From Candidatus Altiarchaeota archaeon (lineage in GTDB: Archaea; Altiarchaeota; Altiarchaeia; IMC4; SCGC-AAA252-I15), in the NCBI GenBank assembly GCA_043804895.1, contig JAZDIN010000004.1, positions 8,887-72,886 of the forward strand: a DNA stretch of 64,000 nt. The letters are read 5' to 3'. Below the pieces are notes generated by a model. The model saw only the letters and a list, made by a program, of their open reading frames with translations, did not search any database and was not told the origin of the DNA. Shown in pieces: positions 1-45,440 of this stretch. The translations under genes were made by a program, and so were the position numbers. How positions within the stretch are numbered: the first letter of the stretch is position 1; every line of letters begins with the position of its first letter.

Positions 1-799
1 TAATCTCGGAGTTCAGTTTCTTCGCAAGCAGCTTAAACGACTTCACCTTCGGATCGTATTTCACAGGGAAGCCGCCGCCGATGTCGAGTATCTTAATCCT
101 CTGCCCCGCCCTCGTCTCAGCCTCCCTTATGATGTTGGCGGAAAGCTGCAGCGCCTGGATGTAGTTCTCGAAGTTCGTGCACTGGCTTCCTACGTGGAAG
201 CTCAACCCCTCAACGACGAGGCCCATGTCGAACGCCGCAAGTATGAGGTCCACCGCTTCGCCTGGGTGTGCCCCGAATTTCGGGGAGAGCTCGACCATGG
301 AGCCGGTGTTCGGGACCCTGAGCCTGAGGGCGATTCCGGTGTTTGGGGCGTGCCTTTTAATCTTCTTCAACTCCTCGATGTTGTCGAATGTGACCAGGGG
401 CTTGTACTTGTCGAGCGCTTCCAGCGTCTCGATGGGTTTTATCGTGTTCGCGTATATTATCTTGTCCCATATCCACTGCTGCCTTTGCCGGGCTGGCATG
501 CGTTTTATGTTCTCGTAGACTATCATGAACTCCGGCATGGACGCAACGTCGAAGCTTGAGCCCATGTCGAAGAGCGTCTTCACAATAGCTGGGTCAGGAT
601 TAGCCTTGACTGCGTAATACGCCTGAACGAGCGGCAGGTACTTTCTGAATTCCCTGTAGTTGCTTCTTATCCTCTCGTGGTCGATTACGAATATGGGGGT
701 CCCGTGTTCCCTTGCCAGATCCTTAAGAAGACTCCGCTTAGCGCGGCCGGCATGGTACACTCCGTTGCCCTCCCCGTTGCTTGTATCCTCAGCCTTCAT
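1..799 (-). CDS. PLP-dependent ornithine/arginine/lysine decarboxylase family (group IV, ODC-like). N-terminal ~266 aa only; the 3' end runs off the window.
   Basis: Absent from the supplied track because it is truncated. My own minus-strand translation from the ATG at 799..797 reads MKAEDTSNGEGNGVYHAGRAKRSLLKDLAREHGTPIFVIDHERIRSNYREFRKYLPLVQAYYAVKANPDPAIVKTLFDMGSSFDVAS...SFHVGSQ...ILDIGGGFP. YAVKAN (PLP lysine), HVGSQ and GGGFP are family motifs. The start lies 18 nt downstream of the hss stop. Confidence 0.8.
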   Translation of the reverse strand, partial: MKAEDTSNGEGNGVYHAGRAKRSLLKDLAREHGTPIFVIDHERIRSNYREFRKYLPLVQAYYAVKANPDPAIVKTLFDMGSSFDVASMPEFMIVYENIKRMPARQRQQWIWDKIIYANTIKPIETLEALDKYKPLVTFDNIEELKKIKRHAPNTGIALRLRVPNTGSMVELSPKFGAHPGEAVDLILAAFDMGLVVEGLSFHVGSQCTNFENYIQALQLSANIIREAETRAGQRIKILDIGGGFPVKYDPKVKSFKLLAKKLNSEI

Positions 800-816
800 T
801 TCCCTATTATTGCCCG

Positions 817-2280
817 TCACTGCACGAACAGGAAGTTCTTGAACTGCCATACATCTTCTGGGTCATATTCGTTTGCCTGGTTCTCCTTGAAGTACACCAG
901 CCTGTTCTTCAGCGGAGTCCAATCGGACGCTCCTGAATGGAATCTGCCCAAGTACGGCTTCGCTATCTTAAGCACGTAGTCGTGGGGGAGGTCGTCAGGA
1001 AGGCAGAACCCCTTCTTCGGATTCTCAATCATCCACATTACCGCCGCTATGACGCCCAACGCAACCTGTATTGTCGTCGCATTCTCCCCTGGAGCGAGCT
1101 TCCTCGACTCCTCTATTGAGAGTATGCTGCCGCACCACCATGAATTGTACGGGTGGCCCATGAGGAGTGCGCCGAGTATGTCCGCGCCGGAGGTTATCTC
1201 CGCATCGTCCATGACCCTCAGCCTCGACTGCATCTCGTAGTTGTTGCACCGAAGCTCATGCAACGACACGATGGTCGCATCACAGGGCATGTAGGCGTAA
1301 TGCACCGTCGGCCTGTAAACGGCTTGGCCCCCCTCCCAGACAGTCCACCTGTCGGAGATTCCGAACGCCTCCCCGTGCCTTATCACCATCCCCACAATTT
1401 CCTGGTTGGGTATCCATGAGCGAACCCACGTGTTCATCCCCATCTGGGCTAGCATAATCTGGTTCTTCGGCCCGGTCTGGGGAGCGTGTGCGAGCCTCGG
1501 GAGCTCATTCTCGTGCGTGCCCCAACCCATCTCCGCAGGGGCGGTGCCCTCCTCCCTGAGGCCTTCGATGCTCCATGTGCCGACGAATTCATCAACCTCC
1601 TTCGGTTTGTCTGATATTTGGGTGTCCCGTTCAGAGCAGTGGATGACTTTCACCCCCACCTCCATTGCGAGTTCCGGGAACCTCCGCTCCTTGATGAGCG
1701 TTCTCATCCTGTCTGGGTCTTTCACCTTCCCGTCCTTTACCATCCTTTCCGCTATGTCGATGAGCCCCTGTTTTGCGAAATGGGAGATGAGGCCTGGGTT
1801 GGCGCCGTGGTCTACGACGAAGGTAGTCGCGTCCTTCCAGTCTTTTGTGAGCTCCCTCAGCTTCATCTGCCTGAAGTAGAGCGACTTCTCATAGGGTGTT
1901 GCGGTGAACCTCTCACCGTACGAGTCCCACACTTCCACGGAGGTGTTGGCGTAAAGCACCTCATGGTCGTGACACCACTTGACTATCTCACAGCAGTCTA
2001 TGTTCCAGGCGAGGTCTATGAGTAGTCCGCCGGGGGACAAATGTTTGGAAAGTTCAGTGTCAAGGTTCTTGGGGGTTATCTTCCGCCTGTAGAATCTGAG
2101 GCCCTTCCTCGTCCACGGCTTCAGCTCCTTCGCTTTGTCCTTGAAGTCTAGTATCGTGACATTTTGGAGGGGCACCTTCACGTGCTTGAGGAGTATGGGC
2201 AGCGCGCACTTGGACACTGCACCGTAGCCGATTATCAGGACCTTGTTCTTGAACCCTATCGTTTTAACTTTTCTTACCAT
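817..2280 (-). CDS. hss: Homospermidine synthase, bacterial type (saccharopine dehydrogenase-like fold)
   Basis: 487-aa ORF with an N-terminal Rossmann motif (IIGYGAVSK). Blocks match my recollection of bacterial HSS: ERDTQ, AVYRPTVHYAYMPC, SLHE, WWCGSILSIEESRKLAPGENATTIQV, and a C-terminal VWQFKNFL. Confidence 0.85.
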   Translation of the reverse strand: MVRKVKTIGFKNKVLIIGYGAVSKCALPILLKHVKVPLQNVTILDFKDKAKELKPWTRKGLRFYRRKITPKNLDTELSKHLSPGGLLIDLAWNIDCCEIVKWCHDHEVLYANTSVEVWDSYGERFTATPYEKSLYFRQMKLRELTKDWKDATTFVVDHGANPGLISHFAKQGLIDIAERMVKDGKVKDPDRMRTLIKERRFPELAMEVGVKVIHCSERDTQISDKPKEVDEFVGTWSIEGLREEGTAPAEMGWGTHENELPRLAHAPQTGPKNQIMLAQMGMNTWVRSWIPNQEIVGMVIRHGEAFGISDRWTVWEGGQAVYRPTVHYAYMPCDATIVSLHELRCNNYEMQSRLRVMDDAEITSGADILGALLMGHPYNSWWCGSILSIEESRKLAPGENATTIQVALGVIAAVMWMIENPKKGFCLPDDLPHDYVLKIAKPYLGRFHSGASDWTPLKNRLVYFKENQANEYDPEDVWQFKNFLFVQ

Positions 2281-3695: not shown

Positions 3696-4040
3696 TCAGC
3701 CGACCCTGAAGTAGTCGTCTTCGACGCGGATTACGTCTTCAAGTTCGGTAGTGCTTACTTCGACTATCCTCGCATTCTCCAGCGCCTCCACCCTGTGTCT
3801 GACGCCTGGTTTTATTGTGACTGAGCTTCCTTCAGGCAGTATTTTTTCCTCTGAGCCTAATGTCAGCTTAACCCGGCCGGAGAGGACGTACATGGTCTCC
3901 TTCTTCTTCTCATGGTATTGTAGGCTGAGCCTGCACCCCCTCTTGACTTCCAGCAGCTTGCCAACGTACTCGCCCTCTAAGGCGAAGTGGACCTCGCGGC
4001 CCCAAGGCTTCTCAACGACCCTGACCCTGTTCAAATCCAT
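3696..4040 (-). CDS. Cupin-domain protein (type II phosphomannose isomerase-like cupin)
   Basis: 114 aa. The pattern KPWGREV...SLQYHEKKKETMYVLSG...PGVRHR matches the PMI-type cupin signature (WG.E, QYH..R.E.W.V..G). Confidence 0.65.
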   Translation of the reverse strand: MDLNRVRVVEKPWGREVHFALEGEYVGKLLEVKRGCRLSLQYHEKKKETMYVLSGRVKLTLGSEEKILPEGSSVTIKPGVRHRVEALENARIVEVSTTELEDVIRVEDDYFRVG

Positions 4041-4254
4041 TGGAATATATTAGGGGGAGGGAAAATAAGAGCCCGAACGGGGCGAATAAGTATAGGGTTA
4101 TGTGTGGGGATTCTTTGTTTAGGCTAAATTCTCTGTCTACTACTCGTCGTTAATGTGGGTGGTTTAAACGTTAATGAGATGTCAAGGAGGAGTTGGAATG
4201 TTGCCTGGCTGAAAAAATACTTTAATGGTCTAATCGGGTAATACTCTAAGAGGT

Positions 4255-5364
4255 TTGAAATTGGATTTGTCAGCTTTTGGATGGGATAATGAGTTTGAAA
4301 ACAGTTTCCAGCTTTTTAGGGAGATGGGACTTTTACCTGCTCGGATCATTGAACCTAACCGGCTTTTTTATAAGTTAATCTCCGAAAAAGGTGAAGTAAA
4401 TGGGAAATTATCCGGAAAATTCATTTACGACTGTCATTCCAAAGCTGATTTCCCTACAGTAGGGGATTGGATTGCGTTCAAACCAGACGTTCATAAGGGA
4501 TTTGTCTCTATTTCGGGGATGCTAGATAGGAGAAGCAAGTTCTCGCGAAAAGTCGCGGGCAAAACCTCACAGGAGCAGGTTATCGCAGCAAACATCGACA
4601 CGATCTTTGTCGTGAGCGGACTGGATAGGGATTTTAACCTAAGACGGCTCGAACGGTACATAGCCCTCGCAGCTGACAGTAACGCAGAACTAGTCTTTAT
4701 CTTAAACAAGGCGGATCTATGCAAGGATTTACGGAAAGTGACTTCAGAGGTTGAGGGACTGTTAAAAGATGCAAAGGTATACGTGTTAAGTGCTCTGAAT
4801 AATGAGGGTATGGCTCAGCTTACACCCCACCTCAAGGCCGGTAAAACAGTTGTTTTTTTAGGCTCTTCTGGAGCGGGCAAATCGACAATCATCAATCGCT
4901 TGTTGGGCGAAGAAAGGCAGAAAACGGGGGATGTCAGTACCCATGATGGGCGGGGAATGCATATTACAACCTCCAGAAGCCTCATATTATTGCCAAGCGG
5001 CGCCATAGTAATCGACACACCGGGTTTAAGAGAACTGCAGCTTCTATGTAGCGGTGAAGGCCTAAAGAACGCATTCTCAGACATCGAACAGTACGCTAGC
5101 GAATGTAAGTACAAAACTTGCACGCACACGAATGAGCAAGGATGCGCTGTCTTATTGGCAGTGTCTGAGGGCCGGATAACTGAGGGGAGATTGATTAACT
5201 ATCACAAATTAAAGCGGGAAATAACGTACAATCTTTCCCGGCATGAGAAACAATTCAAGAATAAGCGAGGGAAACGCTGGAAGACCGTAAGTAAACAATC
5301 GAAACTCCTCAAAAAAGACAAAGGAAGTATCCAAGAGGAATGGTTGGGGGCTGTCGACTATTGA
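4255..5364 (+). CDS. rsgA: Ribosome small-subunit biogenesis GTPase RsgA/YjeQ (circularly permuted GTPase)
   Basis: TTG start preceded by GAGG. Motif order is G4 NKADL, then G1 GSSGAGKST, then G3 DTPG, which is the permuted order. A C-terminal Zn cluster reads CKYKTCTHTNEQGC. The region looks AT-richer by eye. Confidence 0.85.
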   Translation: MKLDLSAFGWDNEFENSFQLFREMGLLPARIIEPNRLFYKLISEKGEVNGKLSGKFIYDCHSKADFPTVGDWIAFKPDVHKGFVSISGMLDRRSKFSRKVAGKTSQEQVIAANIDTIFVVSGLDRDFNLRRLERYIALAADSNAELVFILNKADLCKDLRKVTSEVEGLLKDAKVYVLSALNNEGMAQLTPHLKAGKTVVFLGSSGAGKSTIINRLLGEERQKTGDVSTHDGRGMHITTSRSLILLPSGAIVIDTPGLRELQLLCSGEGLKNAFSDIEQYASECKYKTCTHTNEQGCAVLLAVSEGRITEGRLINYHKLKREITYNLSRHEKQFKNKRGKRWKTVSKQSKLLKKDKGSIQEEWLGAVDY

Positions 5365-5443
5365 CCAGATCCGTGTACCCTATTTCCCCATCCCCAAATC
5401 CCCATGATTTTAAAGTCCTACGACCTACTCAGAAAGAGCATAT

Positions 5444-5528
5444 GACTACAGGCGCAGGGGAGGTAGTCATACAGAGTATCCCCACTTAAACTAAACATAC
5501 TGTCCAACACCTAATCGGGGCGACCTAT
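5444..5528 (+). repeat. R-family repeat, copy R1 (full length, with the 9-bp-stem hairpin)
   Basis: tatgactac (5441-5449) and gtagtcata (5463-5471) form a 9-bp stem around a 13-nt loop. Downstream come tcccc-acttaaa and the core aatcggggcgac (5513-5524). About 80% identical to R4 by eye. Confidence 0.75.
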
Positions 5529-6478
5529 TAAAGGTTTAGCGACTGGACTTTTAGGGTGACTTTATCGTCACTTTTGCATTCGTTTATCTCAATCGTGATA
5601 TGCGTGAGCTCGTGAACCTTCTTTAATCTTTCCTTGTAGTATTTGACAGAGTATTTCCTGGCTGTTACGACAGAGATTATGCTGGCGTATTTTTCATCTG
5701 CCACCTGTAATAGGTGCAAATCGCAGACTTTTGAGTCTCCATCGGATTCTATTATCTCTTTGATGTCATTTGATAAAGAAGAAACCATCTTGTGATCTAG
5801 CAATATACTCGCGGAGTCCCTCAATAGCAATGCCGACCATCGGGCTATTAAAAAAGCGCCAACCAGCCCCATAACAGGGTCCAGCCAGTTAAGGTTATAA
5901 TACTTTGCCCCGAGCAAGGCTGTTATGGCGAATACGGACGTCAATGAATCCGCGATTACGTGAAGGTATGCAGAACGGAAGTTCAAATCGTCATGGTTGT
6001 GATGCTCATGAGTATAGGGTGTTGATCCCCTATTGAGTATGGCTATGCATACAAGGTTGACTATAAGGCCGATTATTGCCACGGCAATTGCCTCGTTGTA
6101 GATAATGTTCAAGGGGTGTATAAGTCGTTCGACTGAAGTATAAGCCATTATCACCGCAACCAATCCAAGAATTAAGGCGCTAGAATAGGCTCCAAGTATC
6201 TCGATTTTCCATGTACCAAATGTGAAGCGAGCATTTTCAGATTGTTTCCTAGCCACTGTGTAAGCTATAACCGATATGCCTAATGCAAACGCATGGGTTC
6301 CCATATGCCAACCATCAGCCAATAAAGCCATGGAGTGAGTAAGCCATCCAAACAGAATTTCGGCAATCATCATCAGGAACGTGATTGCCACCACGATTAA
6401 CGCCACCTTCTCCAGACTTTTCTTGTCCCTATTGAAAGAATGATGATGCTGCCACTCCATTAAATGACTATGGTGCAT
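5528..6478 (-). CDS. Cation diffusion facilitator (CDF) family metal efflux transporter
   Basis: 316 aa with 6 TM segments. It has a His-rich N-terminus (MHHSHLMEWQHHH), a His-rich loop (HEHHNHDD) and a C-terminal cytoplasmic domain, the typical CzcD/ZitB architecture. Confidence 0.85.
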   Translation of the reverse strand: MHHSHLMEWQHHHSFNRDKKSLEKVALIVVAITFLMMIAEILFGWLTHSMALLADGWHMGTHAFALGISVIAYTVARKQSENARFTFGTWKIEILGAYSSALILGLVAVIMAYTSVERLIHPLNIIYNEAIAVAIIGLIVNLVCIAILNRGSTPYTHEHHNHDDLNFRSAYLHVIADSLTSVFAITALLGAKYYNLNWLDPVMGLVGAFLIARWSALLLRDSASILLDHKMVSSLSNDIKEIIESDGDSKVCDLHLLQVADEKYASIISVVTARKYSVKYYKERLKKVHELTHITIEINECKSDDKVTLKVQSLNL

Positions 6479-6537
6479 AACAACAACTTTGAATCAAATA
6501 AAATAAATCATGTATCGCATCGATATGCTTACCTACA

Positions 6538-7221
6538 TCACCTCTTCTCAGCCACGCCACGCACAAATGAAAGAATTCTATTCTTAGTTTGGCCTGTTTC
6601 TATGTGTGTGAACCCAGCTTTCTCGAGCATTGAGGGTAGTTCCCTAATATCGTTATGTTCCATTGTATGGCCAAGTAGGAAAGCGACAATGAGTCTGCCA
6701 CGTACGTTCTTCGGTGGTTCAAAATCTGCTATAAAGATATTCCCTCCAGGTTTCAGGACCCGATAAATTTCGGTAAATGCCTTCTGCTTAAGTTCGTCGC
6801 CGGGCAGGTGATGGATCATCAGGCAGCTGAGGACGATGTCGAAGTAGCTGTCTGGGAAGGTCAAACCTTCCACAACACCAACCTGAAAAGCTACATCTAA
6901 GCCAACTTTAATAGCTTTTTCTTTGGCGACCCCTATCATCTGGGGTGAAGCGTCGACGCCGTGGACTTCCCCACTTGGGCCAACTTTGTGTTTGGCTGCA
7001 ATTGTAAGGGTTCCTGTGCCGCAACCCACGTCGAGTACTTTGATTCCGGCAGATAGTTCGACCTTTTCAATCGCAGCCTCCGCTGTACTCATCTTCTCGC
7101 CGATTAGCCGAAGAAAAAGCGAGTTGAACGAGTCATACATATTAGCCCACTTTATGATCACCCCCTTTGTCTTTGGTGTCTTGGCGAAATTGGGGTTATT
7201 CATGTCTGTGTATCTCCTCAT
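6538..7221 (-). CDS. Class I SAM-dependent methyltransferase (UbiE/COQ5-like)
   Basis: Motif I VLDVGCGTGTL, post-I DASPQM, and LKPGGNIFI. Confidence 0.75.
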   Translation of the reverse strand: MRRYTDMNNPNFAKTPKTKGVIIKWANMYDSFNSLFLRLIGEKMSTAEAAIEKVELSAGIKVLDVGCGTGTLTIAAKHKVGPSGEVHGVDASPQMIGVAKEKAIKVGLDVAFQVGVVEGLTFPDSYFDIVLSCLMIHHLPGDELKQKAFTEIYRVLKPGGNIFIADFEPPKNVRGRLIVAFLLGHTMEHNDIRELPSMLEKAGFTHIETGQTKNRILSFVRGVAEKR

Positions 7222-7325
7222 TCAGGTTAAGTCTATCTAATCTCCATTTCCCACTCTATGGTTATTAGATATTACACTATAAACAAGGAAGTTCAAAGTC
7301 ATGAAAAATGTGCCCCCCCCTCTAG

Positions 7326-7389
7326 GTAGCGTAGTCACATAGAGTATCCCCCACCTAAAACGAACAGATTCTTCTAGTCCCGATCGGAG
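7326..7389 (+). repeat. R-family repeat, copy R2 (degenerate 5' hairpin, intact 3' part)
   Basis: The sequence gcgtagtcacatagagtatcccccacctaaaacgaacagattcttctagtcccgatcggag aligns with R1 and R4. It ends 1 nt before the stop codon of the ABC permease. Confidence 0.7.
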
Positions 7390-8160
7390 TTATACTTTCA
7401 TCTTCTTGAAGGCGTATGTTCCTATGGCTATCATCAGCGCCGAGAATAGGGTTAACGCAGCGAAATCCAATATCATCGGGAATGCTGAGACGCCAAGCAG
7501 CGCGCCCCTGAGGCCGTCGACTGCATAAGTCGCGGGGTCCAACATGGTGAGCGGGGCCAGCCAGGGTGGCAGGTTGTCTATAGGGTAGAGGGCTCCGGAG
7601 AGGAAGAACATTGGGAATATCACGAAGCTTATCACCAGTTGGAATCCTTCGGGGCTTTCCATCTGCGACCCGATGATGAGGCCTACGCTGACCATGCCGG
7701 CGGTCGTCATGAGCATGAACGCCAACGCTATGGGGACTGACACGACATTCATATGTAGGCCGCTCATCATCCCTGTCGCGGACAGTATGAACCCGATGGT
7801 GAGGAGGATGACGGCCTGTATCACCGTCTCGGTTGAGCCGCCGACGACCTTCCCTATGAAGATTGACGTCCTGGACATGGGAGAGACGAGGACTTCCTTC
7901 AGGAAGTCCACCTTCTTGTCCCAGATTATGTACACACCGAAGAAGATGGATGAGAAAAGGACCGCCTGCACCAGCACGCCAGGGTAGATGAACGTCTGGT
8001 AGTCCATTCCGTTGACTGATACGAATGAGCCTATCCCGCCGCCGAGGAGCACGAACCAGAGCAACGGGTTTATGACCGAGGACACGGCCCTCGACTTCTC
8101 CCTCATGAACACCTTGGACTCCCTGTACCAGAGCGCGTAAATCCCCTTAAGCTGTATCAT
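7390..8160 (-). CDS. ABC-2 type transporter permease
   Basis: 256 aa with 6 TM segments, immediately downstream of the ABC ATPase on the same strand. Confidence 0.75.
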   Translation of the reverse strand: MIQLKGIYALWYRESKVFMREKSRAVSSVINPLLWFVLLGGGIGSFVSVNGMDYQTFIYPGVLVQAVLFSSIFFGVYIIWDKKVDFLKEVLVSPMSRTSIFIGKVVGGSTETVIQAVILLTIGFILSATGMMSGLHMNVVSVPIALAFMLMTTAGMVSVGLIIGSQMESPEGFQLVISFVIFPMFFLSGALYPIDNLPPWLAPLTMLDPATYAVDGLRGALLGVSAFPMILDFAALTLFSALMIAIGTYAFKKMKV

Positions 8161-13411: not shown

Positions 13412-16400
13412 TCAGTATTTCCTGGGTCCTGACAGCATCTCGTCTGACACCCAGTAGGTTCTGGCTTCCATGTCAGGTTGTTGTTCAAGGATTTTTGCTT
13501 TCTCCAGCCGGTCCACAACGTCTATTATCTCCTTGGGGGTGTGCGGGAGGTCTTCGTTTTCTGAGGGGTTCTGCCAGTAGAGGTGCATGCACAGTCTTTC
13601 CAGGTGTCTTTGCCTTATGGTGTGCCACAGGTTCAGGCGGTGTCCGCTTAAAGTCTCTATGATCTTCACCATTATATCCTTAGTTTCGGCAGTGCCTCTC
13701 ACCTCCTCGCTTAGTATCTTGCCTAGGGTCTCCTGCGCAAGGTTTTCAAGGTTCTCGTCTCCTGGGAACTTTTTCGTCAGCGCGTAGTATCCTCGCGTGC
13801 CGACTGGGATTATTAGTCCCTGTTTCTTTAGGGATTGTACCACGTTGTTAACTTTGCTCTCGTCTATCCCCAGGTCTTGTGCCACTTCCTTGTTTATGCC
13901 CTCGCGTTTCATTATGCCCTGCCCGACGAGGAGCACGTTAGATATGACCTTGAGGACCGCCCTGGCGGCATAGGGGTTAGGGAACCGTGATATGCGTTCC
14001 TCGATCTCCGCCTCTCTGTCCTCCAGGGCAGGGTGTAGGACCATTGCCGGGTTCGGAACAGTAATTTCGTACATGTCCTTCAGTATGTGTACGTCGCGGT
14101 GGTCTTCATAAGACCTTGGCTTTTCCTTCAGGATGTGCGGGCTGATGGCGTCAGTCTCATGGTCTGCCTCCAGCAGTATACCAACGTGGCGTAGCTCGCG
14201 CAGCAAATCCCTCACGTAAGGGTTCATGACATCTTTTGTCTCCGGCAACCCTGGACAACCATTCGTCAGGCAGTCGGTGACGAGGTCATCTCTACCTACC
14301 GTGTGGTTCGGCTTGTTAGAGATTATGTTGATTATTAGACGGGCTGCCTCGAGTTTATCGTCCTTGACATTAAGCAGCAACCTCTCTAGCCTCATTTTAT
14401 TAACATTCTCGTTAGTCTGGTCCCATGAGGTTGTCTTACCATCGTCTGATTTTATGTCTCTGAGGAGGCATCCATCAGATACGCTTGGGCTTGTTTCAGG
14501 GTCGGTTACTACACCAAGCCGAGACAATTCCCTGAGGTCTGCCTTTATCCCTTCGATACGACCAGCTTCGGTGTCTGGGTATATGACCCCAAGTACCGGG
14601 TGTTTTGAGCAGAGTTCTGCCAATTTCTTTATCTCCAGGTGGCCGGTGAAGTGGCTTACAGCTTTTGCCAGCTCCTCCTCCACGTAGCTTAACCTCCTGT
14701 TGTTTATGGTTTCCGCGTTAACGTAGCGTTGGAAAGCGTGGAACGGGTGGGGGAAATCCGGTTGGGGGCGTCTCTTGTACGGGTTCGCAAAGACCTTCCC
14801 GTCCATGAGTATCATGTCCTTTTGCATGAGTTCCTTCCTTGTCATCTTGTGCGTTGATGATGCTGTGGTTGATGGTGTTGTGCTGACTTCTCCCTCGTCT
14901 TCTTCCTCGGGGTCTTTCCCGAGTATTCTTGTATACTCAACATAACTGATCGAGCCTTCTTTGTTAAGCTTTCCCACAACGACCATTGTCTTGTTCACGT
15001 CCTTCAGGTGTCTTGAGTCGATCAGCATCGTCGGGGGAAGCGAACCAGTCTGCCCGTAAAGTTTCTCTGCCCCGATTCTGTTAAGATTTTTGAGAGCATC
15101 AATGCTTGCGAGTCCCCTGTGTTTTCCGGAGCCGACCTTTCTGAGATAGTCTTCGACAAGACCCCACACCTTACTGCTCTTGCGCTCCCATGTGTCGAGA
15201 GTCTGGATCTCGTCTAGTGCCTCCTTCCTCGTTAAAAAGTCTATGAGTATAGGCTGTTTCGCTATCGCCCTGAAGTATTCTGTCGTGTCTATGCCCCTCT
15301 TCTTCAGGTCTTTGGCGTCGATCTTCTGCAGCTTCCTTATGCGCATGTTGACGTTTAGCGTCCCGTACGATTCGGTAAGTGCTCCGAAGTCGCTGGGTCT
15401 CCCAAGGAACACAGCCCTTAGTATGGACTCCTTTGTTGCATCTTCTCCTAGTTCAACGTCCGGCAGTTTTGAAAGGACTTCAGACATCTCCTCCGCTAGT
15501 TTCACCCCCCTGTCTATCCTCCCGAGGTCTGTGCATTCATCGATGTTTTTCGTGTTCTGGAGTATGTGTGTTAGGAATCCCATCTGGAAGTCGGATTCGC
15601 CGACGCCCCCCATTCTTTTGACTGCGGGAATGATCTTCTTTTCGATGTCCCTCGCCGCCGTTTTGCCTGTCATGAAAATCCTGAAGTTGTTGTTCCATTT
15701 CGCCAGATCTAACATCCTAAGGTATGCGTCCTCCCCGAGTTCTTTGCCTAAGTTGAGGGTCCAAATTCTTAGCACCCCCTCTATCACCCTCTCCGCTTCA
15801 ACCACGTCCACCTGTGGGGGGAGTGGTTTTGCTGGGATTTCTTCAGTGGTGGCGCCTTCACCTACTGTGAGAGTCTTATCTTCTGCAGGCTCGGCGGGAG
15901 CGGGCTTCGGAGGCTCGACCATGCCGATTATGACATCAAGCTGGTAGACTATGTCTTCTAAGATAGGCCTTGAGATTCGTTTATGTTCTTCCAGGTCATC
16001 TCTGTATTTTTGTTTTGGGATGAGTTCAGGGTCTATGCGGGGCTCTGATGATTTAAGATCCTTTTCTAATTGTTCTAATTGTGGGCTTAGAAAATGCCAG
16101 GCCGCTGTTTTTTGTCTTTTCTTTCGTGTGTCTGCTGTTAGGAACTCTAGTTGGTCTTGTTTGTCTTGCGGGATGAAGTTGGGGTGTAGGTAGGTGTCGA
16201 CTGATTCGCCGCCTCCTTTAGTCAGGTATGAGGTGGCTAGGATAAACTCGGCATATGCCCAGTCTCCCGCGTTGATGTGGTCTATCAGCCTCTGGGTCCT
16301 CTCCGAGTCACGGGACAGTGTCTTCCACTCTGGGAGTTTTTCTTTTTTTATTAGTTCGGCGCCGGCGGCGGCTCTGAAAGGCCCTTCCTCCTGCCTGAGG

Positions 16401-19400
16401 AGTGATGACAAATTCTCTAGGGTTGTTTTTTCTAGCCCCGCAACTACAGATAGTGTGTTGAACTCATCCTCCCTGCCGTCGGCTTTAAGCCAGAATGCGT
16501 CCTCAAGTACTGCCGTGGACTTCCCGTGCAGCTTCACGATTTCCGTGTGGTGTTCTCTGAGGAACTCGTCTGCGGAGGGGATGCTTCCCCTGTCAGCCCA
16601 GTTATAGTACCAGCCGGCCAATCCGAGGTCGCAGTTTTGAGGTAGTGTGTCCTCGAACTTCCTCTCCCCTTCGGATATGCCATGTAAGGCCGCCATTTTT
16701 TCCCCCATATTTTGTGGCGTCATATCGGTCAATGCTTCTCTGAGATGTGTGAAGTATTCGCCGTCAAGCAGTTGGAACCTGCCGACCTCTCGGATGTCCT
16801 GTGCGAATTGGCCTAGGTTGAGGACTCCCTTGATGACTTCGATTCTGCCCGCACCTACCACAGCCGATCTTAGCGTTTGGAGGGCTCTGACGACCGTCTC
16901 GGGCTTAGTGCCGCTGTGATTCTCTTTGAACTGTTTGATGAACTGTTGCGCTTCGCCGGTTGATGCGAAAAGCTTCGGGTTGTCGGACCAGATTCTGGAG
17001 AATTCCTCCCTGACTCCTCTGTCAAAGTCGCCAAACATCATATTCACTACCCTCGGCCTCTCCTCAGGGTGTATGCCCTCTGCCTCCCAGGAGCGGTCTC
17101 TTGCCTTTGTCAAGTCTGTGATGGTATTTTCCTGGTTCGCTAGTAAGGGCGTAAGGTGTTCGACGCCGGTGACCTTCAGTATGCTGTTGACTTCCCGGAG
17201 TGTGTTATCTCTTTTGGCTTCATCGTCTGAAATCGTTAGGATAACCTGGGCTTTCACACTCTCGTCGCCGCCTTTACCGAGCCTCCTCAATGCCTCCTCT
17301 GCAAGCTGCCACCGATTCTTTGGACCTGACCAGCGGGAGAGTTTTTCAAGATTTTCCGGTGTGAAAAAGTCTCTGTGCTCCCCCCCGACTAGGAGGCCCA
17401 GTATGCCACCCAGTTTACCTGCATTTTTCAGGGCGTGTAGGTGGTCTATTGTCCTTGGTTCCTCTTCGATGAGGTTACTGACAGTGTCGGAGGTGATTGC
17501 AGAGGTGTGTTCCGAGAGTAGGTTCAGATATTTCGCAGCCGACCCCTTCGAGGTCTCCTCAGCCCTCAGCAGGAGGGATGTAGTCCCTTCTGATGCTAGT
17601 AATGCACGCCTGTCAGGTTCAGAGTCCATGAACAGGTCGAAGTAATCTTGCACGTATGGTCTTTTGACCATCTCTTTCAGCGTGTCCCTGTAGTCTGGAT
17701 TGGTTAAACATGAGAAATATTTTAGAGCGTATTCTGCCTCCCTGCTGGAACCCTCTGGCATGTTCTCTGGCTGCTTTAGTTTAGTCCGGCCCTGGGCCGA
17801 CCTTAATAGGCGGTCCATCAACGGGCCCAGTATCTCCGGCTCCGCCTCCACTGTTTGCAGGAAGGCTTTACCAGTCTCTGATGTGGGTATGAGATACTCC
17901 TGCGCCCTCTCAATCCTATAGAAGCCTAATACGGTCTTGGGTGTGTCAGGCCCCATCCTTTCCAGCTGGTCCAAGTATTCTTGTGTTACCACCATGTCAA
18001 GACGGTCCATCCTATCCAGGGGTATCCTGTCAAGGGACTGGACATAGTCCACCATAAATTGTCTTTCAACGTTCCCCTTCTTTGAGATTAGCTCGTATAT
18101 CTCCGCCGGTATGTCCTTTTTTTCGCCTGGCTGGTCTTCTTTAACGAATAGTGTATTGATGTCTATGGATTCATCCCCTAAACCAGTGCCGCCGGTAACT
18201 CCCTCTGTCCAATATGCTGCTGAGAGTGGCTGATTCTCCCTGTTGAGCTTTATTACCCGGTCTATGAACTCGTTGAAGTGGTAGTTCATAGAAAGGCTCA
18301 CCCTGCCCTCCTGGACCTTAGCCAGCTTCTTGTCGACTTCCCTTTCTATGAGTCTCATACCGTCCAGGTTTTTTATATTCGTGGTGGCGGCTGGGAGTTT
18401 AGTCACAGCACCGTTTATCTCCTTAATCCATTTTAGCATCTGCTCCATCGAGTCTATGCTCCCCCACTGGTCCAACTCCTCCAGGGACAGGAGGAACGCG
18501 TTATTCGCTTCTTTCGCGTCTCCGAGTTGTTTTATGAAATTTGGGCTTTCTGGCTCGCCAGCGTTTACCGCGGATATTGCTTCTCTGAGCGAGGTCACAG
18601 GAGCTGAACTCCGTAGGACATAATGGAATTGTTCACGCATCTTTGTCATGTTGTCCGTTAGGCTGCCTAGAGCAATGACCGAATCATATGCCACGTCGAC
18701 AACGGCTGTGGAGTACAGCGTCTGTTGTTCGGGCTTAAGGGACAACACCCCCTTAACAACATCCATGAACTTCGCCGGGTTGATTTCCGATAGGGTATCC
18801 GGATGGAAAAAATCTTCGGGTTTGACTTCGGCTTCTGATTCTATCCCCTTAGTCCGTTCCAACACACCCTCGCGTACCGTCTCGAATGGTACGCCGGCCT
18901 TCAGCTTGGAGGCCATCTCCTCCATCACCTCTATCGCCGATTTGACGGTATCGGAGTCCCTTATTTTCGTCATACCGGCCCTAACGGTCTCCCTGGCGGT
19001 TATGTCCTCTTCTTTGATTGAACGTTCGATGATCTTATCGCTTTTCCAGTATTTCGTTCTTTTCCTCAGGTCCTTTAAGACGTGGTTGATTTCTTCACCG
19101 CCTTCAATCCTCTGGACGAATTCTTTTATCTCCCCGATAGCTGCTAGCACTATTATGTATCGTTCAACGCGGTCGTATGTTTCCTTCATTTGGGAGGAGT
19201 GCGTTCTAACTGCTGCGCTATACCCAAAGGCATCTGTCAGATGTTTCTGGGCCGCGTCAATGTCCTCAAACCCGATGGACGAAAGCGCCTGCTCCCGTAG
19301 GTCAGGTTTTAGGCGTAGGATGTAGGAGGGGTCGAATGACACTATTTTTCCGAGGACTGTCTTATCGTCTTGGGTGATGCTTGGCTCAGCGATTCTGAAG

Positions 19401-30231: not shown

Positions 30232-30242
30232 TTTCGAGAGAT

Positions 30243-30351: not shown

Positions 30352-30397
30352 ATAATATAGTAAGGACGGTTACGTTAAAAATAGGCGACCACAGCCT

Positions 30398-30554: not shown

Positions 30555-30766
30555 AAAGGCTGCGGTATTCTCGGATTCAGCAAGTATGCACTCACGCAAC
30601 ATACTGCCGAATCCTCGAACGGGACGACCCCCATATTTTCCTCAGTCTAGGTGGTCTTAGCTTCGTTCTATTAAAGATAGCGTAAGATTGTTAGGAGATT
30701 CCAGGATATACCTATTGATGGTTTTGATTTACCCTACCAACAGAAAAGGACAGCGATCAACAGAAA

Positions 30767-31339
30767 CTATGTTCTCATTAGAAATAGGAGTAGGAGTATT
30801 GGTGAAAAAATTATTATGACAAGACAAATATCCCCCAGAACATATGCAAGGAACGATCGCCAAAAGCTTATTTGATGCAATTTACTTAGCCCAATGATTT
30901 GAAGCACTCCCATATATGCGTAGGATATGTGACTCACATAGGGTATGCTCATCAACAAAAGGTGGGGGGTCGCACCATAACTGAATGCTTTATAAGTCTC
31001 CGAAAAGTTACCACTCCCACCTAGAATTCTTGTAAAAACGTGTATCAACCCCGATGTGAAGAACGTGGCGATAAAAAATACAATATATAAAAAAGAGGTG
31101 TTAATTAACACGATTATAGTGACGTGACCACTACTGCTGAAATTTTGGACAATCACAGTTACTACAAAGTCGATCAACATAGCGATCGGCAATAAAACAA
31201 ACAAATAGCTGACGGCTTTTTTTATACCCTCCTCTGAATGAATCTCAGTCCAACAAGTGTTTGGTTCAAACAATATTGATTTAACTCTTGGAATAAAAGC
31301 CATAACAGTAGAGTGCTTTGCTTTGCCTTTAGTTTTCAC
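30767..31339 (-). CDS. Yip1-domain-like polytopic membrane protein
   Basis: 190 aa, or 178 aa from MAFIPRV at 31303. A short N-terminal segment is followed by 5 TM helices, and the pattern resembles the Yip1/DUF1282 family. AT-rich. Confidence 0.5.
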   Translation of the reverse strand: MKTKGKAKHSTVMAFIPRVKSILFEPNTCWTEIHSEEGIKKAVSYLFVLLPIAMLIDFVVTVIVQNFSSSGHVTIIVLINTSFLYIVFFIATFFTSGLIHVFTRILGGSGNFSETYKAFSYGATPHLLLMSIPYVSHISYAYMGVLQIIGLSKLHQISFWRSFLAYVLGDICLVIIIFSPILLLLFLMRT

Positions 31340-31546
31340 GATAAATACTTGTGTTCTTATATTTTAGTACCTGTGTGTTTATGAGGTGTTTCTAAATGAG
31401 TTTTCAGCACGATCTCCTGAAACTCCGCTATTCTCCCTTTGCTAGAATAGTCCGGCTACTTCTTACCGCCTTTTTCCCATCCTCCGTCACTCACTTTTTA
31501 TCCTCTTAGGATAGAGGTTAAAAACGATTATTTCATTTTCTTGAGG

Positions 31547-31594
31547 TTCCCCCACCTAAATCGAACAGAGTGTTCTAGTCCCGGTCGGGGCGAA
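31547..31594 (+). repeat. R-family repeat, copy R3 (3' part only)
   Basis: ttcccccacctaaatcgaacagagtgttctagtcccggtcggggcgaa aligns with the 3' half of R4. Confidence 0.7.
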
Positions 31595-31714
31595 GTTATC
31601 CAATTCCCTAATATATGTCGGTTATGACGTCCTTAGCTTGTACTGTCTGAGCCTCCTGAGAGATTTGAACACTTTGTACGAGGTAATGTTTTTACCCCTA
31701 CAAAATGCCTAATT

Positions 31715-31757
31715 TGTAGTCATATTTTTGTAGTCATATTTAAACTTGTAGTCATAT
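31715..31757 (+). promoter_or_regulatory. Three direct copies of tgtagtcatat immediately upstream of the Fic ORF
   Basis: Copies lie at 31715-31725, 31729-31739 and 31747-31757. The 9-mer gtagtcata is the 3' arm of the R-family hairpin, and its complement tatgactac overlaps the Fic stop at 32705-32713. Confidence 0.6.
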
Positions 31758-31758
31758 A

Positions 31759-32709
31759 GTGTTATTGATGCACATTGAGGTTCAGGAGCGCGGCGGGAAG
31801 AAGTTCATTTATGTGGCTCATTCCTTCCGTCATGGGGGTAAAGTTAGGAAGTTGAGGAAATATCTAGGAGTCAACCTTAGTGGAAAGGAGATATCTTCTT
31901 TGAGGCCTGCTGCTGAGAAGGCGCTGATGTGGCGGGCTGAGGCGAGTAAGAGCATCCGCGACCCCCTGAAGACTGTTTTGTCTCCTCAGGAGATGGCGTC
32001 TATCAAGTCCTTGATTGGAAAGCACGACATTAAGATAAGCCATCTGTCTGAAAAACAGTGGGTTAGATTCACCGAACTCTTCGCATATGATACTAACGCC
32101 ATAGAAGGGTCAACAGTGGATTTGGCCGAAGTCAAAGGCATATTGGAGAGAGATAAGTGGCCTGACAAGGCGAAGGATGAGATTGCTGAGACATATGGGG
32201 TGTCTGACGCAGTCAAGTTGATTAGGAGGACTAAAGAACACCTGTCAATCGAGTTGATAATGGAACTACACAAAATTGTTTTCAAGAACTCTAAAGGGTT
32301 CGCGGGTAGGCTGCGCCCACCTGGAGTAGAAGTAGTGGTCACAAACCGTTTTGGAGAGATCATCCATAGAGGCGCACCCCAAAAACATGTCTTGAAACTT
32401 CTAAAGGAACTCGTGGAATGGTACGCAGAAAACAAGAAACGATACCACCCTATTGTCCTTGCAGCTGTCGTCCACAACCACTTCGAAAACATCCACCCAT
32501 TTGAGGATGGAAACGGGAGGGTTGGAAGACTCCTATTGAACAACATACTACTTAAGCACGACCTCCCCCCAGTTAACATTGAATTAAAAAACAGAAAAGG
32601 GTACTACGCTTCTTTACAAGCGTACGAAAAGGCGGGTAATCTCAGACCAAGTATAGAGTTGGTATTAACGTCCTATGACAGACTCAAGAAAACCCTGAGG
32701 AGTATATGA
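31759..32709 (+). CDS. Fic-domain protein (AMPylase / Fido family)
   Basis: Carries the canonical Fic motif HPFEDGNGRVGRLL. The ATG at 31768 (MHIEVQERGG) is the more likely start; the track starts at the GTG at 31759. Confidence 0.85.
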   Translation: MLLMHIEVQERGGKKFIYVAHSFRHGGKVRKLRKYLGVNLSGKEISSLRPAAEKALMWRAEASKSIRDPLKTVLSPQEMASIKSLIGKHDIKISHLSEKQWVRFTELFAYDTNAIEGSTVDLAEVKGILERDKWPDKAKDEIAETYGVSDAVKLIRRTKEHLSIELIMELHKIVFKNSKGFAGRLRPPGVEVVVTNRFGEIIHRGAPQKHVLKLLKELVEWYAENKKRYHPIVLAAVVHNHFENIHPFEDGNGRVGRLLLNNILLKHDLPPVNIELKNRKGYYASLQAYEKAGNLRPSIELVLTSYDRLKKTLRSI

Positions 32710-32789
32710 CTACATGCCCCAGAGGCGTAGTCATACAGAGTTTCCCCCACCTAAACCGAACAAACTGTTCGAGTCCCGATCGGGGCGAC
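32708..32789 (+). repeat. R-family repeat, copy R4 (best-preserved copy)
   Basis: tatgactac (32705-32713) and gtagtcata (32727-32735) form the hairpin. Then come tttcccccacctaaa, the hairpin cgaaca-aac-tgttcg, and gagtcccgatcggggcgac followed by a T6 run. Confidence 0.8.
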
Positions 32790-32930
32790 TTTTTTCAAGG
32801 GGGTACTAGTTCTGTTATAATTTATTTTTAGCTTATTTGGTTAGGGTTCATTTGTTAATGTGAGGGGGTTTGAACCTTAAAGTTGTAGTCTTGATGTAAT
32901 TACCGCTTGCCAGCAGTGCAAACACGCCTG

Positions 32931-34520
32931 TTAGGAGTGGATGATGTTGGCTGCCAAAACCCCGAAGCCCACCATTGTGCAGATTATTATTGTTAAGACG
33001 GTTAAAGTCACCAGCGCAATTCCCAGTATTATGATTTTTACCTTGTTTATTCTTTTTTTAGGGGGTAAAAGGTAGTAGGTACCGATGACAGTTGTCAGAA
33101 ATATCGATACACCGAAGACGATCGTCGCAACCACAAAAACCAATCCCCCGAATATCATGGTGTTAGTGTTTGGACCGTTGGGGACCTCAACGATCGCAAA
33201 TGTGCTCAAATGAGGAGCAAGCGCAGCATAACGGCATATGTTGCTGTCACAACTAATCTTCCAACTAGGAAGTTTTTCCCAGGATTTTTTATCCTCATTA
33301 TATATTGCAACAGCAACCCCTTTTGCATTAGCAGCGTCTGAGGCTTGCTTACCTAAAAGAAGTTTAGTAAATGAATCCCAGCTATAACCTTGAGGCTTAT
33401 ATTTGGCAGCATCAGATTTTGTTTCTAAGTATTTAAATAAATCTTGCTGGGATTTAAGCTGCTCTGCAGTAACCTTAGACTCAGATTCAGAGTAGGCATA
33501 ACTATGTCTTGTCGTTGAGAATTCTATAAGTGCCTGCGAATAATCTTCATAAGGCTGATCATTATTCTTAGTGTTCACAACAAGCATCTTATCAACCTGC
33601 TCGCCATTTTTACTAGGATAATCAGGAGCTCTGTTTGCGCCCCTATAATTCTGCCAATCTTTTCCATAAATAACAGAAACATCCATGGTAGCATCATCAG
33701 TAGGTTGTTTTAAAGTAGTGGTAATCCGGGTGACTGTTGCACCCTCAGGCAATGTGGCGCTTACATCGTCCCCTGATTTTCTATTTTTTATATTATATTC
33801 TACATTAATCTTTGGCAAAGATTCTCCAATACCTTGCTGTTTTAAAGTGTCTGCTGAAACTGAATTTCCATCTTCATCTGAAATCTTTCCAGCAGGCAAT
33901 TGAACTGCTTGCCCCACCCAGTCATCTATTGCAGAGCCAATAATTTGCTGAGCCTGAGCTATTTGTTGTTCCTGTTCTTCCTGAGATGCAATTCTCTTTA
34001 TGCACCGGCTATTTTCCCAGGAGCAGATATAGAATGTGGCGCAACTGTTGAGGCATTTCTGCTTTGCATCATCTTGTTGCTGCGATTGCGTCGTGGTGGT
34101 TCTGGGTTGGGTTGTTGTGGTCTTAAACAAGGTAGTGCTAGGCGGTTGCGGCTGTGTTGAGGTGGTGGTCCTGATCCTTTTTATGCACTGGTGATTCTCC
34201 CAGGAACAGACATAGAATGATGCGCAGCTGTTGATGCATTTAGTCCGATCATAATTTTCATCATAGGTGCAGCCCCCGGTTATGCTGTACCTGGCCCCAT
34301 ATTCTGCCGCACCAGCCCGACACTGCGCAACACCGTTAGCAACCAATTGTTGACATGAAGCTTGGTCAGGGAAATATTTCGGCCCCCAGCATTCCTTGTA
34401 ACCCTGTATAAAACAACAGCCTTCGAATTTCCACGGCCCCTCTCCAGAAACGGCAGAAAAACCTCCACTCATTAAAAGTCCAAACACAACTATGATGGAA
34501 AAAAGTTTTTTCTGTTTCAT
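32931..34520 (-). CDS. Secreted / membrane-anchored Cys-rich surface protein
   Basis: Signal peptide MKQKKLFSIIVVFGLLMSGGFSAVSG. The module C.NSCA.FY.CSWEN..CIKRI is duplicated, separated by T/Q-rich linkers (TTTSTQPQPPSTT, TTTTQPRTTTTQ). There are two C-terminal TM helices. Confidence 0.7.
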   Translation of the reverse strand: MKQKKLFSIIVVFGLLMSGGFSAVSGEGPWKFEGCCFIQGYKECWGPKYFPDQASCQQLVANGVAQCRAGAAEYGARYSITGGCTYDENYDRTKCINSCASFYVCSWENHQCIKRIRTTTSTQPQPPSTTLFKTTTTQPRTTTTQSQQQDDAKQKCLNSCATFYICSWENSRCIKRIASQEEQEQQIAQAQQIIGSAIDDWVGQAVQLPAGKISDEDGNSVSADTLKQQGIGESLPKINVEYNIKNRKSGDDVSATLPEGATVTRITTTLKQPTDDATMDVSVIYGKDWQNYRGANRAPDYPSKNGEQVDKMLVVNTKNNDQPYEDYSQALIEFSTTRHSYAYSESESKVTAEQLKSQQDLFKYLETKSDAAKYKPQGYSWDSFTKLLLGKQASDAANAKGVAVAIYNEDKKSWEKLPSWKISCDSNICRYAALAPHLSTFAIVEVPNGPNTNTMIFGGLVFVVATIVFGVSIFLTTVIGTYYLLPPKKRINKVKIIILGIALVTLTVLTIIICTMVGFGVLAANIIHS

Positions 34521-34609
34521 ATCTGCTTTCTAGCCACAATTACCTATTAAACTACACTATTAAAAACAATCTTAATCTCATGAAACTGTGAAACCACATT
34601 ATGACATAT

Positions 34610-34714
34610 GACTACAAAAACCTAAGAGGTAGTCATACAAACTCAAATGTCACCAGTTTGCGTCTATCGTTTTCTTTGGGGATTCGAACAAACAATTCGA
34701 GTCCCAATCGGGGC
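34610..34714 (+). repeat. R-family repeat, copy R5 (hairpin and 3' core conserved, middle diverged or expanded)
   Basis: tatgactac (34607-34615) and gtagtcata (34629-34637), then cgaacaaacaattcgagtcccaatcggggc ending 1 nt before the stop of the class II aldolase gene. Confidence 0.7.
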
Positions 34715-35263
34715 TCATCGACAGTATACCCTTTGTATCAGTTTGAACGCCTCCTCGAGTGTGGCGCCTACTGCGACGACTCCGTGCCGTCGTATCACAA
34801 TGTAATTTGATTTTCCGAGAGCCTCCACGACGTCCCTCGCCTGACTTAGTGTTCCGTAGGGGTGGACCCGGTCTGTGACGACGAGGCCTAGGGGGTTTTT
34901 GACTGCCAGGCTGTCGTGGGCGTGTATCACCGCGTTCACCTTCGGATACTTCTGGTATATGAGCCAGTGCATCGGAACCTCAGAGGACGGCTCAACTGAA
35001 CCCACCACATGGGCGGTCCTGTTTTTGAATTCGCGGACTTCGACTATACCCCCCGGAGTTAACTGGCCTTTGTTTTTTCCGCCGGGGGTGATTAACATCC
35101 CCTTCTCTGTTCTGACGCTGATGTTGCCTGCGTTCTCGGGGGTGAGGCCCATCTCGTTCAGCTTCCTGCCTACGGCGACGATGGATTCGGCTGCACTGCC
35201 ACCAGCTGAGAATTTACTTAGGAACTTTGTCCTGAACTTCCTGCCAACGTACTCCTCAGCCAT
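34715..35263 (-). CDS. Class II aldolase/adducin-family protein (FucA / MtnB-like)
   Basis: 182 aa with GNISVR, SSEVPMH and AVIHAHD (Zn-binding His pattern). Confidence 0.8.
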   Translation of the reverse strand: MAEEYVGRKFRTKFLSKFSAGGSAAESIVAVGRKLNEMGLTPENAGNISVRTEKGMLITPGGKNKGQLTPGGIVEVREFKNRTAHVVGSVEPSSEVPMHWLIYQKYPKVNAVIHAHDSLAVKNPLGLVVTDRVHPYGTLSQARDVVEALGKSNYIVIRRHGVVAVGATLEEAFKLIQRVYCR

Positions 35264-45426: not shown

Positions 45427-45440
45427 AAATCCGGCCGACT

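Follow-up and report, generated by a model that had tools for sequence, protein, structure and literature searches.

The Streptococcus ICESt1/3 CIMEs (cis-mobilizable elements) and the SXT/R391 MGIs (mobilizable genomic islands) are bacterial elements that are bounded by attachment (att) sites and have no integrase of their own, and they accrete with, and are moved by, an element sharing the same att; they are rather large, occur few per site and lie beside the attB of their helper. The tycheposons of Prochlorococcus (Hackl et al., bioRxiv 10.1101/2020.12.28.424599) form flexible-gene islands that are split by partial tRNA copies (att), in which integration is repeated at one site, newer elements push older ones along, and niche or defence genes are the cargo. 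Integron arrays and CALINs (clusters of attC sites lacking integron-integrases) are built from units of one or two genes, each ending in a recombination site, and include integrase-free arrays and toxin-antitoxin cargo (Ghaly et al. 2022, PMC9668308). In archaea, integrating elements of the SSV and pNOB8 types use the 3' part of a tRNA gene as att, and tandem integration is known (PMC8371274). The locus described here, which we call island 1, is like these systems in the features just named, apart from the size, number and location given for CIMEs and MGIs. It lies in a stretch of 64,000 nt (64 kb) from a Candidatus Altiarchaeota archaeon (assembly GCA_043804895.1, contig JAZDIN010000004.1, positions 8,887 to 72,886), which was analysed as a whole and is referred to below as the window. 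Its permease, RsgA and CDF proteins are each 100% identical to NCBI proteins of a MAG with the label Candidatus Altiarchaeota archaeon; a Thermococcales origin, as GC content had suggested, was rejected on these labels.

Island 1 (window positions 4087-7389, 3.3 kb) is made up of two small gene cassettes with copies of a short core sequence at their borders; cassette 1 is a 1.4-kb rsgA unit, and cassette 2 is a 1.9-kb unit with genes for a DmeF-type cation diffusion facilitator (CDF) and a methyltransferase. The core is identical to the 3' end of a tRNA-Asp gene, homology between genomes breaks off at the core, and arrays of the same core are present in other genomes. We consider it likely that island 1 is a two-unit array of integrase-less mobile cassettes, which arose by serial site-specific insertion at an att site that goes back to the 3' terminus of tRNA-Asp(GUC).

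Layout and composition of island 1

The cupin, RsgA, CDF, methyltransferase and ABC-2 (ATP-binding cassette) permease genes in and around island 1 were identified by Pfam assignment. At the left end, a core-only site (gagcccgaacggggcgaa / gagCCCGAACGGGGCGAa) at 4069-4086 on the plus strand lies 28-29 nt upstream of the start codon (4040) of the cupin gene, which occupies 3696-4040 on the minus strand. This attL-like junction comprises host flank and then the tRNA-Asp-derived core CCCGAACGGGGCGA at 4072-4085, without an upstream arm; it coincides with a drop in GC content, and homology to the rsgA cassette of a second Altiarchaeota genome (L020, see below) begins exactly there. Cassette 1 opens with a conserved non-coding leader (4086..4254, plus strand), which is a candidate P' arm plus promoter and contains GGGTTAT, followed by rsgA, encoding ribosome small-subunit-dependent GTPase A (4255..5364, plus strand; PF03193, E = 9e-49). 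The junction of the two cassettes, R1 (5410..5524, plus strand), is composed of a remnant of about 35 nt homologous to the 3' end of a Fic gene, the hairpin ATATGACTAC-N13-GTAGTCATA, a degraded arm of type A (defined below) and the core CCTAATCGGGGCGA; it is 73.6% identical over 125 nt to window positions 32663-32792. Both genes of cassette 2 are on the minus strand. The first, at 5528..6478, encodes the CDF (Co/Ni efflux; Cation_efflux PF01545, E = 4e-36; an identical protein is named DmeF by NCBI), and its stop codon is 4 nt away from the R1 core; the second, at 6538..7221, encodes a class I S-adenosylmethionine-dependent methyltransferase (PF13649, PF08241, PF01209). At the right end, the attR-like junction R2 (7304..7389, plus strand; nhmmer E = 2e-13) contains a degraded hairpin, a type A arm (TCCCCCACCTAAAACGAACAGATTCTTCTAGT) and a truncated core, CCCGATCGGAG, which directly abuts the stop codon (7390-7392) of the host ABC-2 permease gene (7390-8160, minus strand; Pfam ABC2_membrane). 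The C-terminus of this permease, ..AFKKMKV, is a natural end, as relatives finish with ..KKMKL and ..KKMKI.

The 14-nt core CCCGAWCGGGGCGA thus stands in three places: at 4072-4085, in the last bases of R1 (5510-5523) and, as a degraded copy, in those of R2 (to 7389). The exact pattern occurs twice in the window (4072 and 32775), against 0.00 occurrences expected from 100 shuffles. When the window was searched by nhmmer with a 55-nt repeat profile, exactly five copies of the repeat R were obtained, all on the plus strand; two of them bound island 1 (5473-5524 and 7339-7389) and three are in a second island, island 2 (31542-31594, 32736-32789 and 34670-34716).

An earlier note on this DNA, made by a model from the letters alone, had placed the core-only site at 4069-4086, the end of R1 at about 5524 and the end of R2 at 7389 by the permease stop, and all of these coordinates check out, with R1 ending at 5523/5524. 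Its description of a 1.4-kb rsgA unit and a 1.9-kb CDF and methyltransferase unit between cores agrees with the Pfam results. It had also reported about 17/19 identity between the core-only site and the core of R; the site is real, but that figure needs one indel, and the ungapped shared block is a 14-mer.

The note had further judged by eye that the DNA between the cores is AT-rich, and the composition check bore this out. The GC content of island 1 is 0.443, compared with 0.523 in the rest of the window (z = -4.8), which places it under every same-size window of the rest, and its tetranucleotide distance measured against such windows gives z = 8.7. At third codon positions, GC is 0.48-0.51 in the island 1 genes and 0.69-0.78 in the flanking genes. 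By composition island 1 is therefore foreign-looking. The GC content of island 2 is 0.421.

The core, tRNA-Asp and arrays in other genomes

A tRNA-Asp(gtc) gene was detected by ARAGORN at positions 4157-4232 of L025, a related sediment contig that had been retrieved because its CDF is 81% identical to the window CDF. The gene starts with GCCCCGA and ends with GGTTCGAATCCCGATCGGGGCG. The core CCCGATCGGGGCG matches the last 13 nt of this gene at 13/13 positions, corresponding to tRNA positions ~61-73, and the type A arms stretch the identity to 20/22 nt, as seen in R4 (TGTTCGAGTCCCGATCGGGGCG) aligned with the last 22 nt of the gene. Before this tRNA turned up, the stretch GTTCGAGTCCCGATCGGGGCG, taken from R only and read as tRNA positions 53-73, had already predicted a 5' acceptor strand of GCCCCGA. 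Integrative elements that target tRNA genes are flanked by direct repeats matching the 3' part of such a gene exactly. A core that equals the end of tRNA-Asp is the usual mark of an integrase with attP and attB lying across the 3' terminus of a tRNA gene.

Same-strand arrays of the core, with 0.6-4 kb of cargo between sites, were found by a relaxed core search in the Altiarchaeota metagenome-assembled genome (MAG) GCA_043800705.1 (L020) and in the sediment contigs L006, L012 and L016. The cores are located at 919, 2554, 3508, 5979, 7314 and 8973 on the plus strand of L020, at 1130, 2965, 5134, 7078 and 8156 on the plus strand of L006, and at 7180, 3172 and 1098 on the minus strand of L012; L016 has two sites on the plus strand. 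The cargo includes AbiEii/AbiEi, HEPN/nucleotidyltransferase, PIN, MazE-PIN, a DUF4215 protein, a histidine kinase, SHOCT and rsgA, together with pntAB accompanied by a thioredoxin-reductase-like gene. Such cargo is typical of flexible gene pools, which speaks for mobile cassettes. The cargo genes lie in both orientations, and their GC content varies unit by unit. The earlier note had suggested tandem site-specific accretion, and this idea gains support from the tRNA-Asp-derived core, from the L020 rsgA unit that is bounded by the same core, and from the arrays in at least four other contigs.

Comparison of these arrays located the point of exchange. Window positions 4072-5307 align with L020 5976-7211 starting at the first base of the core, and to the left of that core lies host DNA in the window versus an R arm in L020, with no similarity between them. 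The left side of L006 junction 1130 corresponds to L020 junction 2554 (L006 1032-1141 / L020 2456-2565), and its right side corresponds to L020 junction 7314 (L006 1129-1234 / L020 7313-7418), the two tracts overlapping in the core only. L006 7074-7196 aligns with L020 3504-3626, again beginning at the core. On the evidence of these mosaics, which are independent of one another, exchange takes place within (CC)CGATCGGGGCG. The whole rsgA cassette is about 76% identical in nucleotide sequence between the window and L020, and a shorter alignment, A2 (L020 5989-6164), reaches 86%; it covers mostly the rsgA leader of about 170 nt, plus the core and the first ~45 nt of rsgA.

We also considered whether R could be a non-mobile intergenic repeat, such as a repetitive extragenic palindromic (REP)-like sequence, a terminator or a small RNA, with the cassette-like look being produced by homologous recombination between R copies. 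R does stand after stop codons, a run of T follows R4, and the long forms of R4 and L009 fold well below shuffled controls (z = -3.2 to -5.4). The 55-nt unit, however, folds no better than shuffles, and covariation is absent, as only 2 pairs were changed on both sides, a number that 45 of 500 shuffles also reached; the hairpin pairs are either invariant or broken, with 6 of 14 sequences having two of them broken. No Rfam match was obtained at the gathering threshold in the 64 kb, and nothing relevant even at E <= 5 in island 2 and the L020 array, which also disposes of a known structured RNA or ribozyme. Moreover, R and the left junction of island 1 have just 14 nt in common, which is too short for homologous recombination, the breakpoints fall on a block of 10-13 nt, and the identity with tRNA-Asp would be left unexplained. 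We therefore regard a non-mobile repeat as a most improbable origin of the cassette structure.

With respect to the distribution of R, relatives were found in freshwater-sediment contigs by a metagenome scan. Searching the species-representative genomes for CGAACANNNNNTTCNAGTCCCRRTCGG yielded just three matches, all bacterial and all without the remainder of R; either the source lineage is missing from the species representatives, or the representatives do not have R. Three patterns searched in IMG/VR gave nothing real, plasmid and phage collections gave no match, and CCCGATCGGGGCG was not found in any paper of the literature searched.

Junction structure and a model of insertion

The sequences upstream of the core belong to at least three unrelated types. 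Type A is TCCCCCACCTAAA / GTYTCCCCCACCTAAA-CGAACA-N5-TTCKAGT and is present in all window copies, in L007, L009, L010, L012 and L016, and at the L020 junction 5979; type B is GAACACGG..GTAAC..GG-ATG, and type C consists of two direct repeats of GAACCCGNYCGCCT. The invariant part of the junctions is GATCGGGGCG. The window has a long form of R of ~130 nt, which also holds the last ~35 nt of the Fic gene and the hairpin described for R1. Downstream of the core, stretches of about 100 nt recur with differing cargo, one type being common to L006-7078, L020-3508 and the Fic cassette of the window. This arm distribution, together with the recurrent downstream stretches, indicates that a junction reads as P arm (belonging to the upstream unit), core and P' arm (belonging to the downstream unit), as a lambda-type attP would after being split by integration. 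Among the regions downstream of the junctions, GTTATA occurs in 24% and GGTTAT in 19%, compared with 1.5-3% of background windows, a 7-16-fold enrichment; since the motif is in under half of the 21 junctions, we take it as a lead only.

On this basis the following route to island 1 can be proposed. A circular cassette would carry one composite site, consisting of a P arm of 40-130 nt, the core (CC)CGATCGGGGCG and, in many cassettes, also a P' arm of about 100 nt. If this site recombined with a core anywhere in the chromosome, the cassette would be inserted with host DNA plus core at its left junction (4069-4086) and arm, core and host DNA at its right junction (R2); a second integration at either junction would give rise to an internal full site (R1). 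The target of insertion would have been a secondary site resembling the core, within the spacer of ~45 nt that separates the cupin start from the ABC permease stop, and a tyrosine integrase would have been supplied in trans by a larger element targeting tRNA-Asp. Of this account, the identity of core and tRNA, the breakpoints at the core, the arrays in other genomes and the foreign composition are observed; we infer that there was a circular intermediate and a pseudo-attB, which class the enzyme belongs to and that it acts in trans. An attL/attR asymmetry is observed in both islands, the left junction being core-only and the right one having an arm plus a truncated core. The left core has A where the cassette cores have T (GAAC vs GATC), and the right copy (CCCGATCGGAG|TTA) loses identity after CGG; together these place the crossover within about CGG and point to an ancestral pseudo-site of roughly GAGCCCGAACGGAGTTA in the cupin-permease spacer.

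Several points weigh against this model. The arrays were seen without a flanking tRNA gene (none was found by ARAGORN in the window, L006, L012, L016 or L020, of which the L020 array may run past the contig end), so the primary attB would be the one deduced from another contig, L025. Two other marks of tRNA-targeting elements, an intact target tRNA at the end of the island and an integrase gene borne by the element, are missing here, and Pfam detected no integrase, transposase or recombinase domain in window open reading frames (ORFs) of >= 90 aa; a recombinase domain was likewise absent from the scanned ORFs of >= 80 aa in L006 and L012 and from the L020 genes on record. The arms are not strictly linked to cargo, as rsgA is followed by a type A arm in the window and by a type B arm in L020. 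In cassette 2 a P' arm is lacking, since only 4 nt separate the CDF stop codon from the core. Homologues of rsgA in L021-L024 stand without any core. Finally, an empty site was not recovered, because the nearest relatives are too distant: the earlier note had proposed to look for cupin and permease genes adjacent to each other with a single core, and this arrangement was not found, the closest ABC permease relatives (71-77% amino acid identity) having other neighbours, no cupin synteny and no core after the stop codon.

A rival reading is that the units do not move as cassettes. They would then be what decay has left of full-size integrative elements (plasmids or viruses) that arrived one after another, each once with its own integrase. 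Tandem integration followed by decay does yield tRNA-derived direct repeats that partition islands (doi 10.1101/2020.12.28.424599; PMC8371274), and R3, which is truncated, and L019, with its decayed arm after rsgA, would fit such a history. Against this, two genomes have the same minimal rsgA unit of 1.3-1.4 kb between cores although its neighbours there are unrelated, none of the ~18 units seen has an integrase or a recognisable fragment of one by Pfam, and ~100-nt P' arms recur with differing cargo. A split SSV-type integrase gene around the att site was also rejected, since 17 of the 21 junctions have stop codons in all six frames. We accordingly think it rather improbable that the units are remnants of larger elements.

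A further alternative is a true integron-type platform, in which an integron-like integrase elsewhere in the genome would act on folded single-stranded sites and R would serve as attC. The architecture is the same, with sites mostly at the 3' end of units of 0.6-4 kb and toxin-antitoxin cargo common, and there are reports of integrons and CALINs from archaeal MAGs (PMC9668308). The R''/R' boxes (RYYYAAC...GTTRRRY) are nevertheless present at no junction: GTTRRRY was at the boundary in 0 of 21 cases, and GGGGCG is followed by AATAAG, ACCTAT, TCTGGC, ATACTC and so on. There is no covariation, arm types A, B and C have no common fold, and what is conserved is a primary sequence, namely that of a tRNA 3' end; in addition, genes point in both directions, and the 64-kb window has arrays at several loci where an integron would have a single attI. 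The earlier note had argued against an integron from the absence of attC boundaries, the mixed orientations and the lack of a visible integrase, and we reached the same view; R acting as attC is hardly credible.

Other identities were tried and set aside. The ORF by the first clear core of L020 (1334-2338, minus strand), a candidate integrase, proved to be a secreted cysteine-rich protein, and ORFs 61041-61958 and 26901-27779 of the window and 3846-5054 of L020 were unlike recombinases on sequence reading. An Xer/dif site, as in pdif modules and IMEX, has 28 bp, with two 11-bp inverted repeats around a 6-bp spacer (PMC2958812, PMC8371274); the only palindromes found by inspection were CGAACA-N3-TGTTCG (6-3-6, poorly conserved) and CCCGATCGGG, so a dif-like site was rejected. 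A transposon, a miniature inverted-repeat transposable element (MITE) or an IS200-IS605-type element was rejected as well, because there is one conserved site per unit and no listed inverted-repeat pair brackets a cassette.

Island 2, cargo origins and relation to known systems

Island 2 (30606..34716, plus strand) is a sister array of island 1. It is made up, in order, of a possible left core (CCGAATCCTCGAACGGGACGA), Yip1 (minus strand), R3 (31542-31594), Fic (plus strand), R4 (32736-32789), a 529-aa secreted protein (minus strand) and R5 (34670-34716). R3 is a truncated copy of R. R5 runs right up to a class II aldolase gene at its stop codon, and the right end of island 2 in this respect resembles that of island 1. 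At the GC drop of island 2, CCGAATCCTCGAACGGGACGA (30606-30627) resembles the T-loop and 3' end of tRNA-Asp, at ~17/20 with one indel in an alignment made by eye, and it is probably the left att remnant of the island.

The short sequence GTAGTCATA has 10 copies in the window, compared with 0.3 expected, and nine of them are in or near R junctions. Inverted pairs of it form the 5' hairpin of R1, R4 and R5 (5441-5471, 32705-32735 and 34607-34637) and are also present in L009, and three direct repeats stand just upstream of the Fic start codon (31716-31756), in the P' region of the Fic cassette. These repeats could be arm-type sites of an integrase or a Fic operator. In a more far-reaching version, which we put forward tentatively and hold to be less probable than not, the arrays would constitute a separate cassette-capture system of Altiarchaeota and neighbouring sediment archaea that parallels the integron: cassettes of one to four genes would bear their own promoters and a modular lambda-like attP with interchangeable arms, an integrase acting in trans would shuffle them among many loci, including non-tRNA loci, and GTAGTCATA would provide the arm-type sites, with two inverted copies in the P arms and three direct copies in the Fic P' region.

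Other repeats were noticed around island 2. Positions 30242-30357 and 45258-45427 are inverted copies of ~115 nt, 87-92% identical, of an element with two hairpins (CTGAGGGCA..TGCCCTCAG, then CGAGAGCATAA..TTATGCTCTCG); one copy is at the left edge of island 2, and the element, which has no Rfam match, may represent either a MITE-like repeat or the gene of a small RNA. Positions 30449-30554 are an 88% copy of 50675-50780, which spans the junction of a nucleotidyltransferase (MNT)/HepT toxin gene pair (50364-51111); since the copy at 30.4 kb is without intact genes, it is a toxin-antitoxin remnant beside island 2. About 100 nt at 51744-51849 are 78% identical to L010 1578-1678, a cassette-borne region of a sediment contig; on the window side this stretch has no R copy and adjoins small unannotated ORFs near the MNT/HepT pair. 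Elsewhere in the window, a 2621-aa ORF at 13412-21277 (minus strand) has no Pfam match at E <= 1e-4.

For the origin of the cargo, the earlier note had suggested horizontal acquisition of rsgA from bacteria. The window RsgA falls in a clade of ~42 sequences with 56-85% identity that holds all Altiarchaeota-labelled homologues, and bacterial RsgA (Acidobacteria, Zixibacteria) is at most about 51% identical and lies across a long branch. These limits point to related archaea as the immediate donor pool; any bacterial origin would be older, and the suggestion is only partly right. The rsgA copies bearing a core or arm (the window, L020, and L019 with its decayed arm) group together, the core-less L021 and L022 belong to the sister group, and the neighbourhood of rsgA differs in every genome examined. 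An apparent cassette polymorphism between L022 and L023 was rejected, the DNA being 99.95% identical and the difference one of gene calling only. The relatives of the window CDF are Altiarchaeales-labelled and metagenomic (77-81%), Nanoarchaeota-labelled (72%) and Desulfobacterota (60-65%) proteins, and the DmeF-type CDF grades into its Desulfobacterota homologues more smoothly than RsgA does into bacterial ones. The CDF gene is next to a methyltransferase gene also in L025 and in the metagenome contig P0246, in different order. In P0246, rsgA adjoins a MarR-methyltransferase-methyltransferase-CDF block that is arranged differently from the window, and this gene order is consistent with unit shuffling.

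L025 has two further features. Positions 3918-4105, just upstream of tRNA-Asp, are probably an intron-containing tRNA gene that was not called by ARAGORN (acceptor strands CCCGTCT / AGACGGG, T-loop GTTCAAATC). A Fic protein encoded at 246-1160 (minus strand) adjoins the CDF-methyltransferase pair, ~3 kb from tRNA-Asp, and has a weak C-terminal match, below the Pfam cut-off, to HTH_17, an excisionase-type helix-turn-helix (E = 3e-4).

Arrays of this kind would give a concrete route by which single genes, such as rsgA, a Co/Ni efflux pump or toxin-antitoxin pairs, pass between genomes of uncultured archaea, for which few mobile elements have been described, and they would account for the two compositionally foreign islands of the window. 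The profiles of the core and arms can be used as a search key for arrays, their cargo pool and the integrase in metagenomes. More generally, cassette economies like that of integrons may arise from ordinary tRNA-targeting integration.

Compared with the described systems, the cassettes of island 1 are best placed as a variant of tRNA-targeted site-specific accretion, which would work like an integron or CALIN without belonging to that family. From CIMEs and MGIs they differ in forming arrays of many very small units with modular arms, and in being archaeal. Tycheposons encode a tyrosine or large serine recombinase of their own, often together with replication genes, and an intact tRNA gene marks the start of their islands; here, the units are of 0.6-4 kb, there is no recombinase and no intact flanking tRNA, and the host is an archaeon. 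For CALINs, mobilisation in trans is assumed (Ghaly et al. 2022, PMC9668308). Unlike integron arrays and CALINs, the sites described here are not attC and have a sequence-conserved core from a tRNA 3' end, and the genes lie in both orientations, have their own upstream regions and occupy several loci. With respect to SSV- and pNOB8-type elements, the differences are the absence of int, intact or split, the non-coding junctions, and units far smaller than plasmids or viruses. What is new here, in our view, is that the core comes from tRNA-Asp, that the P and P' arms are modular, that other Altiarchaeota-like genomes have the same integrase-less arrays, and that these lie at non-tRNA loci.

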